From Candidatus Parcubacteria bacterium (GTDB taxonomy: Bacteria; Patescibacteriota; Patescibacteriia; Buchananbacterales; SURF-54): a stretch of 64,000 bases of DNA. The first letter of the stretch is position 1. Every line of letters starts with the position of its first letter. The stretch covers positions 407 through 64,406 of the forward strand of contig QZIX01000009.1 in NCBI GenBank assembly GCA_003599635.1, in the 5' to 3' direction. The notes beneath the pieces are model-generated. The model worked only from the letters and a program-made list of their open reading frames with translations. It was not told the origin of the DNA and did no database searches. The position numbers were made by a program, and so were the translations under genes. Of this stretch, positions 1-44,892 are shown in pieces.

Positions 1-1
1 T

Positions 2-1306
2 GTTTTATCAGTTCCTGACGAAGAGCAAAATTTCATTCTTTATCTGCCCCTGAAGGGTAGGATATTGAAAGTCAATTCCGGTGTCATTAACTTGCTTAAG
101 GATTTTGAAGAAACGGGTCAATTTCCTGAAAGTGAAATCAAACAAAAATTATTGGAGAAAGGAGTGCTAGTAGTTGAGCCAGAATCTGACCCGTGTGCTG
201 ATCATGAAATAACAACCGAGCATAAACCAACCTCTGTAACGTTATTCCCTACCAGCGACTGCAATTTGCGCTGTATTTACTGCTATGGATGTGGTGGTGA
301 GACCAGCTTTTACCTTGGTTGGCAAGTGGCTAAGGCAGCGATTGATTTAATTATCGCCAATGCCTTAGAAATCGGACTTGATAAAGTTTCAGTCAATTTC
401 CATGGTGGCGGTGAACCGTTCTACGGTAAGGCCTGGCTTTTGATGCAGCAGACAGTGGATTACACTAGACGAATGGCAGAAAAAAACCATTTGAAATGGT
501 CTGCCGCAGCCGCCACTAACGGTATATTATCGCAGGAGAAAAGGGAATGGATTATAAATAATCTTAAGCGCGTGAACCTTTCTCTCGATGGTCCAAAAGA
601 AATTCAGAACAAACAGCGTCCTTTGCGAAACGGCGGACCGACTTTTGAACAAGTAACAGAAACCATAAGGTTTTTTGAGGCGAATAAATATGAGTATGGT
701 TTAAGAGCTACGGTCACGCGTGAAAGTTGTGAGAGGATGGCCGAGATATACCAATTTATTAGCTCAATTACTAGTCTTAAAAGATTTCACTTAGAGCCTT
801 TGTGGGAAATTGGCCGTAGTCTTACCAACAATCTTAAGGCGCCTGATCCTGATTTGTTTCTTCGTCAAATTTTAAGGGTGATTGAAATGGCGGAAAGAGA
901 AGGAGTAGAGATATATTTTTCTGGCAAAAGATGTAAGGAGCTGGGAGATGTTTTCTGTGGTGCTGCGGGCAAGAATTTTTTTATCACGCCGCAAGGGGAT
1001 GTTACTTCCTGTATTGAGGTGAACCAGATAGCCGATCATAGATCAGCCGTGTTTTTCTATGGCAGGTTTAACCTAGAGACTAATTGTTTTGAGTTTGACT
1101 CAAATAGGTTGCTTAACTTACGTCGCAGGAGGACACAAAATTTGCCACACTGCCAGGACTGCTTTATCAAATATGGTTGCGCTGGTGATTGTCTAGCAAA
1201 GGGTAAAGGGGAGAGCATCTTTGACACTAGTATGAATCCTCGTTGTTTGATAAATCAAGGGGTAAGTTTTCATCAATTGCGAAAAGAAGTGGAGGTGGTA
1301 CAATGA
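2..1306 (+). CDS. radical SAM / SPASM-domain peptide-modifying enzyme (5' end probably cut by window edge)
   Basis: CNLRCIYC is the CX3CX2C radical SAM cluster motif, and GGGEPF is the SAM-binding motif. C-terminal Cys clusters are SPASM-like (CGAAGKNFFITPQGDVTSC; CQDCFIKYGCAGDC). The ORF track starts at TTG 65, but this frame has no stop back to nt 2. Stop TGA 1304-1306 overlaps the next ATG. Confidence 0.85.
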   Translation, partial: VLSVPDEEQNFILYLPLKGRILKVNSGVINLLKDFEETGQFPESEIKQKLLEKGVLVVEPESDPCADHEITTEHKPTSVTLFPTSDCNLRCIYCYGCGGETSFYLGWQVAKAAIDLIIANALEIGLDKVSVNFHGGGEPFYGKAWLLMQQTVDYTRRMAEKNHLKWSAAAATNGILSQEKREWIINNLKRVNLSLDGPKEIQNKQRPLRNGGPTFEQVTETIRFFEANKYEYGLRATVTRESCERMAEIYQFISSITSLKRFHLEPLWEIGRSLTNNLKAPDPDLFLRQILRVIEMAEREGVEIYFSGKRCKELGDVFCGAAGKNFFITPQGDVTSCIEVNQIADHRSAVFFYGRFNLETNCFEFDSNRLLNLRRRRTQNLPHCQDCFIKYGCAGDCLAKGKGESIFDTSMNPRCLINQGVSFHQLRKEVEVVQ

Positions 1307-1701
1307 ATAATTTTAGGCTCAAAAACATCAAAAGGCCAACAATGCCTGAACAGCCAGCCATACTGGTAGATAAGAGTTTTAAGGCAGAAGATAAACCACC
1401 GCAGGATGCAACTTTCAAATTTCTTTTTTGCAAATGTGATGACCATCGTTACTGTGCTTGTGAAAGTCATAGACACACGCCGTTTACTGGTTGTTCGAGC
1501 GATTGTAGTCATCACGGTTGGTCGTGTGATTGTGATAAGGAATGCCATTGCGACGGTCAGTGCCAGTGTGAGAACTATTGCTCTTGTGATTCTCAATGCA
1601 AACATTGTCGATGTGTATCTGATTGTCGATGTGAAAGTTATGGTGGATGTGGTGGGTATGAGCCGGGATGTAATTGCAATGTGATTAATGTAGATTACTA
1701 A
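1303..1701 (+). CDS. Cys-rich putative RiPP precursor peptide (132 aa)
   Basis: ATG 1303 overlaps the maturase stop (ATGA), with GGAGGTGG at 1291-1298. It is in the same frame as track ORF 1243..1701. The N-terminal 42 aa lack Cys. There are then 22 Cys between aa 43 and 125, including nine CxC doublets. Confidence 0.6.
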   Translation: MNNFRLKNIKRPTMPEQPAILVDKSFKAEDKPPQDATFKFLFCKCDDHRYCACESHRHTPFTGCSSDCSHHGWSCDCDKECHCDGQCQCENYCSCDSQCKHCRCVSDCRCESYGGCGGYEPGCNCNVINVDY

Positions 1702-1820: not shown

Positions 1821-1859
1821 AAATGAGACACTAAAGCACCCTTTTATAGTGTCTCATTT
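1821..1859 (+). terminator. hairpin with 13-bp perfect stem downstream of precursor gene (possible terminator)
   Basis: aaatgagacacta (1821-1833) pairs with tagtgtctcattt (1847-1859) around a 13-nt loop. The right arm gtctcattt is repeated directly at 1860-1868. The large loop and weak T tail lower confidence. Confidence 0.35.
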
Positions 1860-2132
1860 GTCTCATTTACATTCTCAAATAGGTGATCCGCCTACGGTCG
1901 CCTTAGGCAACCTTTGGCGAGATTAGACCCACCCCCTTCAAAATCCATTTTTTTAAACCCTCACTTTTTTTATTTTATCTATAAAAATTTTAGCCTTTGC
2001 ATTAATCTTATGGGCATCATTTTGGCGGTCATTTTTTTAAATCCATTTCTCAGGTGTATTTGGACGAAGAATAGAAAGGTTAAGGATTATTAAGCGCGAT
2101 TTTTTGTGAATTAAGCTAAGAATTACAAAAAC

Positions 2133-6876: not shown

Positions 6877-6985
6877 GTAAGAAACACTTACTGCTTTTTG
6901 GCAGGAGTATTTTTTTAGAGTTGTGTACAGTTGGCGTCAGTTTTTAGTTTGAAAGAAAGCCTGATTGTTTTAAAAGCAGAAAAAT

Positions 6986-7041
6986 GTCAAATTTCAAATC
7001 TCAAGTACAAAATCCAAACTCCAAATGCCAAATTTTAAATT
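6986..7041 (+). repeat. eight tandem heptamers of NNCAAAT type
   Basis: The units read gtcaaat ttcaaat ctcaagt acaaaat ccaaact ccaaatg ccaaatt ttaaatt. The strict 7-nt register ends 20 nt before the typA ATG. Confidence 0.7.
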
Positions 7042-7061
7042 TTTTTAATTCTTAAATCAAA

Positions 7062-8864
7062 ATGATTAATAAAATCCGAAACATTGCCATCATAGCCCAT
7101 GTCGATCACGGCAAAACCAGCCTGACCGATGGTTTGATGCGCCAGACCGGTGCCGTGGAAGAAGGTTTTACCATGGATACAAACGCTTTGGAACTTGAAC
7201 GCGGCATAACCATTTATTCAAAAAATGCTTCCATATTTTATAAAGACACAAAGATAAATATCGTAGACACTCCGGGCCATGCTGATTTCGGGTCGGAAGT
7301 GGAACGCGTGCTGCGCGCAATTGACAGCGTAATTCTGGTCGTTGATGCCCAGGAAGGCCCGATGCCTCAGACCAAGTTCGTCTTGAAAAAATCTCTGGAA
7401 TTAGGTTTACGGCCGATTGTCGTTATCAATAAAATCGACAAGCCTGCGGCACGTCCGGAATGGGTGCATGAAAAAATACTGGAGCTCTTTTTTGATCTGG
7501 GAGCCAATGAAGAACAGTTAAACTTTACCACGCTTTATGCCGTTGCCAAACAAGGGATTGCCAAATACAAACCCAGTGACAATAATTCGGATTTGACGCC
7601 GCTTTTGGATACGATTTTGGAAAAAGTCAAAGAAGCCGCTTCGGGCGAACTTATGATTAAAAAAGCCAGATTTCAGCCGTTTAATTTGGGCTATGATAAT
7701 TATATGGGCCGGCTGGCCGTTGGCAGAATTTATGAAGGCAATTTAAAGGCAGGCCAAAACGTATTTGTAAAAAATGAAGCCGGACAAATCCGCCAGGGCA
7801 AAATTTTAAAAATTTTCACCTTTAGCGGTTTAAAAAGGCAGGAGACAGAAGAAGCTTTTGCGGGCGACATTGTGATACTTGCCGGGCTTTCTGGCATTAA
7901 TATCGGCGAAACCGTCTGCGAGGATAAGGAACAAATGCCTTTGCCGGCGATAAAAATCGACGAGCCGACGATATCGTTGAATTTTTTGGTCAATAATTCT
8001 CCTTTTGCGGGAAAAGAAGGCCGTTTCGTTACCAGCCGGCAGATTAAGGAACGGCTGGAGAAAGAACTGGAAATTAACGTCGGTTTAAAAATTGATTTTT
8101 CTTCAACTGAGTATTATAAAGTTTTCGGTCGTGGCGAACTGCACATCGCGATTTTGCTGGAAAACATGCGCCGCGAAGGTTACGAGCTTCAGGTTTCCCA
8201 GCCGCAGGTGATTATTAAGGAAGAAAACGGAGCCAAGCTGGAACCGTTTGAAGAATTGACAATTGATGTTCCCAAGGAAATGTCGGGTTTGGTAATCGAA
8301 AAAATTTCGCAGCGAAAAGGAATTTTAAAAAATATGGAAAACGAAAAAAATCTGTGCCGTCTGATTTTTGAAGCGCCGACACGCGGTATTTTGGGCTACC
8401 GCAGCCAGTTTATAATTGACACGCGGGGCGAAGGCATATTGTGTTCGCAGGTCGTCGGGTTTAAACCTTACGCCGGTGAAATCAGCCGGCAGAGATTCGG
8501 TTCCATGATATCCATGGCAACCGGAAAAGCGCTCGGGTTTTCATTATACAATTTGCAGGAAAGGGGAATACTTTATATCGGTCCCGCCGTCGATGTTTAC
8601 GAAGGACAAGTGATAGGCAACACAGCCAAGGGTGACGACATGTCCGTGAACCCGACCAGAGGAAAACATCTGACCAATATGCGCTCCAAATCCAGCGACG
8701 AAGCAATAATTTTGACTCCGCCACTTGAACTGACCTTGGAAAACGGGCTGGAAATAATGGCCGACGATGAATTTCTTGAAATTACGCCGCAAAACATCCG
8801 TTTAAGAAAACAGTTGTTAAAGGAAATTGACAGGGTCAGGGCGTACAGAACAGCAGTTGAATAA
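7062..8864 (+). CDS. typA: translational GTPase TypA/BipA
   Basis: AHVDHGKT (G1), DTPGH (G3), NKID (G4), and a length and domain order typical of BipA. Confidence 0.95.
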
Positions 8865-43936: not shown

Positions 43937-44767
43937 ATGCTGATTGACACCCATGCCCATCTTAATTTTAACGCTTTCAAACAAGATTCGGAAAAAATAA
44001 TCGATGGTTGTCTTAAGGAAAATACCTGGATGATAAATGTAGGTTCGCAGTTTAGCACCAGTAAAAGAGCTGTTCATATCGCCGAAAATTATAAGCAAGG
44101 GGTCTATGCGTCAGTCGGTTTGCATCCAATACATTTATCAGTCCTTGAAATTGACGAAGCCGAAACAGGAAAGTTAATTACTGCAGCTGAAAAATTCGAT
44201 TATCAAAAATATAAAGAATTAGCCGGGTCTTCAAAAGTTGTTGCTATCGGGGAAATCGGGCTGGATTATTTCCACATTAATCCTGACGACGAGGAAAATA
44301 AAAATAGGCAAAAGCAAACTTTTAAAAAACAACTGGCTTTGGCAGAAGAATTAAAACTTCCGGTTATTTTACACTGCCGAAATGCTTACGATGAAATGCT
44401 GAAAATATTGCAGTCGACAGCCAACAGGCAATCAACAGACAACGGAGTGATACATTGTTTCGGTGGTACTTTAAAACAGGCACAAGAATTTATACGATTA
44501 GGTTTTTGCATAGGTTTTACCGGCATAATAACTTTCGGTAAAAAAGCCGAAGATCTGGTTAAGGTAGTTTCCCTCATACCTATGGAAAAAATACTTGTGG
44601 AAACTGATTGTCCTTATTTGGCTCCGGAACCTTTTCGCGGTCAAAGAAATATGCCTCTGTATGTAAAGTATGTTGCTGAAAAAGTTGCTAAAATTAAGGG
44701 AATAGAATACAATAAAGTTGTGGAAAAGACTTCGGAAAATGCCATTAATTTATTTAATTTGCATTAG
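43937..44767 (+). CDS. tatD: TatD family metal-dependent hydrolase
   Basis: IDTHAHL, GEIGLDY, ILHCR, HCF.G and ETDCPYL motifs. Confidence 0.9.
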   Translation: MLIDTHAHLNFNAFKQDSEKIIDGCLKENTWMINVGSQFSTSKRAVHIAENYKQGVYASVGLHPIHLSVLEIDEAETGKLITAAEKFDYQKYKELAGSSKVVAIGEIGLDYFHINPDDEENKNRQKQTFKKQLALAEELKLPVILHCRNAYDEMLKILQSTANRQSTDNGVIHCFGGTLKQAQEFIRLGFCIGFTGIITFGKKAEDLVKVVSLIPMEKILVETDCPYLAPEPFRGQRNMPLYVKYVAEKVAKIKGIEYNKVVEKTSENAINLFNLH

Positions 44768-44772
44768 GCATT

Positions 44773-44892
44773 ATGCCTAGACCAAAAGATCCTTGCCCCT
44801 GCGGTTCAGAAAAGCCCTATGGCTCCTGCTGCGGCGCTGCCGAACCTTGCGATTGCGGTTCAGGACAACCGGCGGGCGAATGTTGCTACTAA
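44773..44892 (+). CDS. SEC-C motif small metal-binding protein (39 aa, below ORF-track cutoff)
   Basis: Translates to MPRPKDPCPCGSEKPYGSCCGAAEPCDCGSGQPAGECCY. PCPCGS.K.Y..CC is the SecA C-terminal zinc motif, followed by a second degenerate copy. Confidence 0.55.
   Translation: MPRPKDPCPCGSEKPYGSCCGAAEPCDCGSGQPAGECCY

Follow-up and report, generated by a model that had tools for sequence, protein, structure and literature searches.

The 64,000-nt stretch of DNA analysed here (the window) stems from a metagenome-assembled genome of Candidatus Parcubacteria, a member of the candidate phyla radiation (CPR), and begins with a gene for a radical S-adenosylmethionine (SAM)/SPASM enzyme (1..1306, + strand). 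This gene is directly followed by a small, extremely cysteine-rich open reading frame (ORF; 1303-1701, + strand). The two genes most likely represent an uncharacterised family of enzyme-modified peptides that recurs in uncultured bacteria and archaea. The cysteine-rich peptide family is conserved beside the enzyme clade, and it appears highly probable that the pair consists of a maturase and its substrate. With moderate confidence, the pair in the window is further regarded as a two-gene cassette for a peptide that is made on the ribosome and modified after translation (RiPP) and that may carry repeated thioethers. A sequence-only reading of the window had already proposed a maturase-precursor pair, and its statements on the motifs of the enzyme, the overlapping junction, the Cys-free leader of 42 residues and the 22 Cys all hold on re-reading.

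The precursor and its pairing with the enzyme

The product of the small ORF is 132 aa long and contains 22 Cys, of which residue 43 is the first. Its leader (MNNFRLKNIKRPTMPEQPAILVDKSFKAEDKPPQDATFKFLF, 1303..1428, +) comprises 42 Cys-free residues with the motifs FRL, P-x-I-(I/L) and D-x-T-F that are common to the homologues. The core (1429..1701, +, stop codon included) packs all 22 Cys (24%) and nine CxC doublets into 90 aa. Doublets at residues 75/81/87/93 and again at 102/108 are spaced six residues apart, the gaps between Cys run 2, 4, 2, 4, and eight of the nine doublets are followed by D, E or N, such that the repeat can be written as a CxC(D/E/N)xx hexad. The C-terminal segment of the core, CRCESYGGCGG, resembles the CxCYHYGGPG end found in the family. 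The window holds 1108 stop-to-stop ORFs with a length of 30 aa or more. Among these, the precursor has nine CxC doublets and 13 Cys in its best 40-aa stretch, the runner-up two CxC doublets and eight Cys; the Cys and CxC density of the small ORF exceeds chance. A 44-aa Cys-rich frame at 44758-44889, which has no start giving at least 40 aa and no radical SAM neighbour, was put aside as a chance occurrence.

Enzyme and precursor genes meet in an ATGA overlap (1303..1306, +), formed by the TGA of the enzyme (1304-1306) and the precursor ATG (1303), and a Shine-Dalgarno-like GGAGGTGG (1291..1298, +) lies 4 nt 5' of this ATG, both as read from the sequence. Because of the overlap of stop and start, translation of the two genes appears to be coupled. 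Junctions in related loci are similarly tight, with overlaps of 8 nt (locus L167) and 17 nt (L170) and gaps of just 1-8 nt (L164, L165 and L163).

A homologous precursor with leader and CxC core is encoded directly after the enzyme in eight of nine close loci (39-48% enzyme identity) from CPR bacteria and DPANN archaea (L162/L163, L164, L165/L166, L167, L168, L170, L002 and L082). Only the Helarchaeota contig L169 is without a separate precursor ORF. At its C-terminus, the enzyme of this contig (435-1874, P0013) is extended by a segment, GKHRFRLGDVQLPHKCPPPRILGIF, with similarity to FRL and PxIL of the leader; judging from these motifs, the segment may be a fused or decayed precursor. Pairing was also assessed over the 34 loci whose enzyme relatives score at least 250 bits, with CxC-rich ORFs defined by at least three CxC per 40 aa and a position within 1.5 kb of the enzyme. 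Such an ORF is present on the strand of the enzyme in 24 of them, and most of the other ten hold weaker Cys-rich ORFs. Altogether 32 CxC-rich ORFs occur in 90.7 kb near the enzyme, compared with one in 117 kb of far flank and one on the opposite strand; CxC-rich ORFs are strongly enriched beside the enzyme on its own strand. Both sets of loci bear out the pairing proposed in the sequence-only reading, and the small-ORF homologues for which it had suggested a search do adjoin homologous enzymes.

An exhaustive profile search over 1.84 billion representatives (E ≤ 1e-3) returned 18 matches to the precursor family, 17 of them with 69-144 aa and one with 1002 aa, and the layout of leader plus core is present in all 14 whose sequences were read. 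The leaders are alike, as exemplified by NFRLKNI…EQPAILVDKSFKAEDKPPQDATFKF in the window and RTFRLGT…GAPSIIRAVRIGAGDKPATDATFCF in L165 (overall identity 39-43%), and share the signature FRL…PxI(I/L)…DxTF(C). Several loci carry more than one precursor copy: L162/L163 have three to four in tandem, L168 has three and L015 two, and in L165/L166 the enzyme is flanked by a copy on either side. A frameshift seems to affect one of the L162 copies (6904-7098 into 7079-7513). Two of the three precursors of the Pacearchaeota locus L168 (4567-4860 and 4875-5183) have fewer Cys and a hydrophobic end, GCLLLLGGIVGAGYEIYKLIRY, reminiscent of a transmembrane segment, so that these peptides may be membrane-anchored.

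Pfam and NCBIfam contain no model matching the precursor, 16 relatives or 8 more distant precursors, and a PDB sequence search with the precursor produced a chance match only (E = 0.25). A description of the enzyme-precursor family was not found in the literature searched, though bioinformatic surveys may have mentioned it before. As far as it can be tested by database matches and published papers, the earlier claim that the core belongs to no recognised precursor family therefore stands. The AlphaFold2 model of the precursor (pLDDT 47) lacks an autonomous fold. The idea of hexads stacked into a self-standing β-helix-like fold finds no support in this disordered model and was abandoned.

Architecture and family placement of the enzyme

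The enzyme is a CteB/PapB-like radical SAM/SPASM peptide maturase with all cluster ligands. It corresponds to RJR31569.1 of NCBI, where it is annotated merely as 'radical SAM protein'. From the window edge, frame 2 stays open up to the TGA at 1304-1306, and the window carries codons 9-442 of 442; according to the source contig (gene at L001 7462-8790) the start codon lies 24 nt 5' of the window. The N-terminus, possibly with a domain resembling a RiPP recognition element (RRE), had been expected outside the window, yet only 8 residues are missing and the RRE-like domain (2..181, +) is inside. Its predicted structure consists of three β-strands followed by two helices (strands at 2-5, 11-15 and 20-24, helices at 26-38 and 45-53 in the AlphaFold2 model), and on the basis of this model it is presumed to be the leader-binding module.

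The CX3CX2C motif (CNLRCIYC; 260..283, +) provides the site for the radical SAM [4Fe-4S] cluster, and its three Cys are invariant in all 49 homologues of the alignment that was used for counts of invariance and as a profile for PDB searches. The SAM-binding 'GGE' motif, GGGEPF (404..421, +), is contained in the sequence FHGGGEP that is invariant in the family alignment. In the SPASM domain (932..1246, +) the Cys are arranged as C319, C327-X12-G-X4-C345, C392-X2-C395-X5-C401-X3-C405 and C423 (full-length numbering). The seven Cys of the SPASM motif are invariant in 49 of 49 homologues, and by its sequence pattern the Cys set is sufficient for two auxiliary [4Fe-4S] clusters. C319 (nt 932-934) sits 8 residues before the SPASM motif, aligns with the equivalent Cys of CteB and is common to only three of the 49 homologues.

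Pfam identifies Radical_SAM (39 bits, cut-off 29.5) and Fer4_12 in the enzyme. The Pfam SPASM model yields only 14 bits against a cut-off of 21.5, yet the motif is complete and the fold is like that of CteB and of anaerobic sulfatase-maturating enzymes (anSME). The top NCBIfam match is PapB (NF047865; 113.5 bits versus an equivalog cut-off of 340), and further matches are the nif11-type radical SAM enzyme (110 bits), the SCIFF maturase (TIGR03974; 96 bits versus 425), CcpM (83 versus 500), CefB (82 versus 600), the CXXX-repeat maturase (80 versus 350) and TIGR04463 (60 versus 525). Seven diverse relatives of the enzyme rank the NCBIfam models alike, with 108-135 bits for PapB. The sequence-only reading would have been undermined by firm grouping with anSME; the respective model (TIGR03942) gives no more than 70.5 bits versus a cut-off of 349. 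Sactipeptide maturase models remain far under their cut-offs as well (RumMC 55 versus 720 bits, StsB 49 versus 625 bits). The enzyme thus reaches no NCBIfam equivalog cut-off and is far under all of them.

A search of PDB with the profile of homologues finds CteB (5WGG) with E = 5e-44, anSME with 6e-24 and, weakly, SkfB with 2.6e-13. CteB is also the top PDB fold retrieved by Foldseek with the AlphaFold2 model of the enzyme (pLDDT 92.6; TM 0.73-0.76), and the superposition spans the full length, including the N-terminal domain, at an identity of about 17-20%. The structural neighbours that follow are anSME, ChlB, TigE and SuiB.

The clade around the enzyme comprises 812 proteins at E ≤ 1e-10, the top 120 of which all have E ≤ 1e-97 and 38-49% identity, such that at least 120 cluster representatives fall under the stricter threshold. 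Named members belong to Parcubacteria, Paceibacterota, Pacearchaeota, Woesearchaeota, Nanoarchaeota and Helarchaeota. The presence of the closest enzymes in both CPR bacteria and DPANN/Asgard archaea suggests that ultra-small organisms of the two domains have exchanged the cassette. A role in anti-phage defence akin to that of prokaryotic viperins was considered and rejected, as the PADLOC pVip match (32 bits, E = 2e-8) covers the generic radical SAM core only.

More distant relatives of the enzyme (28-37% identity) are found in Coriobacteriaceae, Clostridiales, Acidobacteria, Rhodothermales, Desulfobulbaceae and other lineages. Some adjoin peptides that are made up of C[ST]C[ND]xV hexads and have CxCVPVH or HYWYPN/YWYPC as their terminus. 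Others, with 28-33% identity, adjoin WD40 β-propeller proteins of 420-560 aa with C-terminal C[ST]C[ND]xV tails, often ending in YWYPN/YWYPC (L132 1561-2964, L094 31-1701, L126, L131, L100, L120, L142, L144 and L136). Neither Pfam nor NCBIfam has a model that matches these distant peptides or tails. Such neighbourhoods suggest that relatives of the enzyme may modify full-size WD40 proteins and hint at whole-protein modification.

Proposed chemistry and competing explanations

Linkage of Cys to Asp, Glu or Asn by thioethers is put forward tentatively as the chemistry of the system, by analogy and with slightly more doubt than conviction. The proposal is founded on the acceptor preferences of PapB, QhpD, CteB and NxxcB and on a D/E/N-x-x-C geometry like that of NxxC peptides; D/E/N acceptors are used by PapB, QhpD and NxxcB (PMC11002830; PMC9413430). 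One of D, E, N and Q stands at position 4, right behind the CxC, in 78% of the 106 hexads of the close family, in 72% of the 76 hexads of the distant family and in eight of the nine hexads of the window. Cys occupies hexad position 7 in 53-64% of hexads, and D/E/N-x-x-C is realised in 64% of those of the close family. The best NCBIfam matches of the enzyme (PapB, nif11-type, SCIFF, CcpM, CefB and CXXX-repeat) are all maturases of thioether or Cys-rich peptides.

In the mechanism envisaged, the RRE-like domain would bind the leader of the precursor, and at hexad position 4 the 5'-deoxyadenosyl radical would remove hydrogen from the conserved side chain (Asp, Glu or Asn). The sulfur of a nearby Cys, probably bound by auxiliary cluster I in the manner of CteB, would then capture the carbon radical. 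The product would be one S-Cβ or S-Cγ thioether of the ranthipeptide type per hexad, with the geometry of NxxC peptides, D/E/N-x-x-C, or the alternative C-x-x-D/E/N. Repetition along the core would create a ladder of small rings with approximately one free thiol per hexad, and these thiols could pair into disulfides or bind metal. For the remaining Cys in a doublet, ligation of auxiliary cluster I in the course of catalysis, disulfide formation and metal binding all come into consideration.

Several observations weigh against this reading. Modification of the precursor is wholly inferred. The enzyme is under every curated cut-off and hence outside all characterised families, and members of the radical SAM/SPASM superfamily with 20-25% identity catalyse quite different reactions. 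The E-C-G-R-C sequence (residues ~277-281) that 44-47 of the 49 homologues possess is absent from the enzyme of the window, which has I278 and S281 at this site (nt 833-844); with C319 present and E-C-G-R-C lacking, auxiliary cluster I may be ligated in a different way. Pfam gives no PqqD/RRE match for the enzyme, the RRE being assigned from predicted structure alone. Two Cys are present per acceptor, which a model with one thioether per hexad does not explain, and a core with 24% Cys, CxC motifs and a high content of D, S, G and H is also metallothionein-like.

A maturase-substrate pair with another chemistry is unlikely but retains real weight among the alternatives. Sactionine formation (S to Cα), C-C or ether crosslinks, epimerisation, Cys heterocycles as with SbtM-like enzymes and formylglycine formation as with anSME all belong here. 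The distance of the enzyme from all equivalog cut-offs leaves room for such reactions, its next neighbours in structure and sequence after CteB (anSME, ChlB, TigE and SuiB) catalyse different ones, and two Cys per hexad hint at more than one thioether. On the other hand, the top sequence matches are consistently formers of thioethers with D/E/N/T acceptors (PapB, SCIFF maturase, QhpD), D/E/N at hexad position 4 is conserved in both precursor families, and formylglycine formation in particular is opposed by the lack of an anSME-type CxPxR/CxAxR motif and of a sulfatase gene nearby.

It is very unlikely that the Cys-rich ORF encodes an unmodified metallothionein-like metal or Fe-S binder and that the radical SAM gene is a mere neighbour. 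Such a protein would hardly account for the conserved leader of about 40 aa that is free of Cys. In archaeal as well as bacterial phyla, the ORF is strictly linked on the same strand, often with an overlap, to an enzyme that has an RRE-like domain. RiPP loci typically contain precursor copies in tandem, and a metallothionein Pfam match is lacking. These arguments stand against the composition of the core, with its 24% Cys, its CxC motifs, its wealth of D, S, G and H and its predicted disorder in the absence of metal, and against the lack of a protease or exporter, all of which would suit a metal-binding protein.

The reading frame itself deserves comment, as the JGI gene call for this region is a different one, a 92-aa Val/Ile-rich ORF in an alternative frame (1406..1684, +; L001 8890-9168). 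We judge it to be an artefact: a shift of one base turns TGY-rich codons into GTN and ATN, so that no stops arise and the alternative frame stays open. A like miscall occurs in L162 (6417-6647), where the Cys frame is the conserved one, and conservation across loci, leader included, is confined to the Cys frame. Two paralogous precursors of L165 differ at 18, 13 and 27 first, second and third codon positions, respectively, with 16 synonymous codon changes, a third-position bias that speaks for coding in the Cys frame. The precursor product (132 or 152 aa, depending on the choice of start) gave no hit in an exact look-up in a collection of 15 billion proteins, and a word-indexed homology search with the precursor alone returned no match. 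The same kind of search with an alignment of 10 sequences retrieved three proteins, namely two members of the query and a longer, miscalled form of a third member. Members of the precursor family are systematically missing or mistranslated in protein databases, and since gene callers often skip or misframe these ORFs, mining of protein databases has missed the family. That the Cys frame is no gene at all, be it that the Val/Ile-rich ORF is real or that the region is non-coding, can practically be dismissed: the choice of the JGI caller and the absence of the 132-aa product from the protein collection speak for it, yet protein-level homology extends through leader and core in the Cys frame alone, the Shine-Dalgarno sequence and the ATGA junction serve this frame, the openness of the other is a by-product of codon usage, and in L162 the Cys frame is clearly conserved despite the miscall.

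Genomic context and relation to known systems

The source locus of the enzyme, L001 (JGI 3300007352 Ga0104756_1000020, 162 kb), affords 7.4 kb upstream of the window start, and gene content was checked over a 20-kb locus. The sequence-only reading had placed possible partner genes for a protease or transporter beyond the window. Neither a protease nor an ABC transporter is encoded in the window or over the 7.4 kb that precede it, and related loci have no conserved one either. The precursor is followed by an AT-rich, non-coding and unusually long gap of about 500 nt (1702-2204). Within it, approximately 120 nt after the precursor stop, a hairpin followed by a U-rich tract (1823..1860, +; -16.9 kcal/mol, z = -6.1; none of 200 shuffled sequences folds as well) is a candidate for an intrinsic terminator closing the two-gene unit. 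A consensus terminator scan missed the hairpin because its loop is too long; the scan for promoter and terminator consensus sequences performed no better than on shuffled sequence, and Rfam has no match across the whole window.

The next genes downstream encode a DUF5320 protein (2205-2450, +; 81 aa with a Gly/Pro-rich N-terminus, about 500 nt 3' of the precursor) and, adjoining it, a DUF134 protein (2517-2804, +; 95 aa with a sigma-70 region 4-like helix-turn-helix). Both were rejected as parts of the system, as they are not conserved beside the pair in other loci. A second, smaller radical SAM/SPASM gene (L001 2042-3097, -; 351 aa) is located upstream, some 4.4 kb from where the window begins, among genes for a DegT-type aminotransferase, a NUDIX protein, a methyltransferase and an epimerase. 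These surroundings suggest a cluster for sugar modification that has no relation to the peptide cassette.

Cassettes that combine a radical SAM/SPASM enzyme with a precursor have proved to be a source of new chemistry on peptides, and the hosts in the present case are chiefly ultra-small uncultured CPR bacteria and DPANN archaea, the secondary metabolism of which is almost unknown. The dense repeat with two Cys per acceptor predicts a heavily crosslinked or metal-binding product. A more far-reaching possibility, which we hold to be rather improbable, is that CxC(D/E/N)xx peptides form a new RiPP class in which all hexads are stapled and in which the WD40 tails are modified as well. If so, the peptide of the window would contain up to about nine small rings with one thiol per hexad left free, resulting in a rigidified metallothionein-like poly-thiol scaffold or in a ladder with an undescribed type of linkage, and the clade, shared by CPR bacteria and DPANN archaea, would act on proteins (the C[ST]C[ND]xV WD40 tails) as well as on peptides.

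Of the characterised systems, SCIFF with its maturase CteB (ScfB; thermocellin; PDB 5WGG, 5WHY) is among the closest. CteB is the best match among solved structures by profile and by fold, and both enzymes have radical SAM and complete SPASM domains, behind an N-terminal RRE-like domain that is predicted for the enzyme of the window. Both systems are minimal cassettes of a maturase and a small Cys-rich precursor without linked protease or transporter, and both enzymes have a Cys 8 residues before CX..GX4C. The SCIFF precursor, however, has about 45 aa with six Cys, whereas that of the window is 132 aa long and carries its 22 Cys in CxC hexads. The SCIFF precursor gene usually precedes that of the maturase. 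In the window, the precursor gene lies 3' of it. Moreover, SCIFF is a system of Clostridia, the clade described here one of CPR and DPANN.

PapB, which produces freyrasin from PapA, is the top NCBIfam match for the enzyme of the window and for seven relatives. PapA contains six C-X3-D units, each of which is converted to an S-Cβ thioether (PMC9413430; PMC11002830), and the repetition of a motif with Cys and an acidic acceptor recurs in the precursor of the window. The scores of 108-135 bits versus 340 set the two enzyme groups apart, as do two Cys per acceptor, a different spacing and an unrelated leader on the side of the substrate. In streptococci, NxxcB links Cys to the β-carbon of Asn in N-x-x-C (PMC11002830). 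NxxC ranthipeptides are likened to the present family by motif geometry, D/E/N-x-x-C being present in 64% of close-family hexads; they derive from short, quorum-sensing-linked precursors with a single motif, in contrast to the array of nine units in the window.

CcpM/CcpA, CefB/CefA (Cys-every-fifth), the CXXX-repeat systems and TIGR04463 likewise combine a radical SAM/SPASM maturase with a repetitive Cys-rich peptide, but their precursor models do not match the peptide of the window with its Cys spacing of 2, 4, 2, 4. anSME, the second-best structural neighbour, is alike in SPASM architecture and differs by the absence of an N-terminal RRE-like domain; furthermore, the 20-kb locus contains no sulfatase gene, and the ORF beside the enzyme is free of a C/S-x-P/A-x-R motif. 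A high Cys content, CxC motifs and the lack of an intrinsic fold are also traits of metallothioneins. The ORF of the window, in contrast, is without metallothionein Pfam match and is distinguished by its conserved Cys-free leader and its link to a peptide-modifying enzyme. What appears to be new is an enzyme clade and a precursor family for which curated models do not exist; the kind of system, a radical SAM/SPASM maturase together with a Cys-rich precursor, is a known one.

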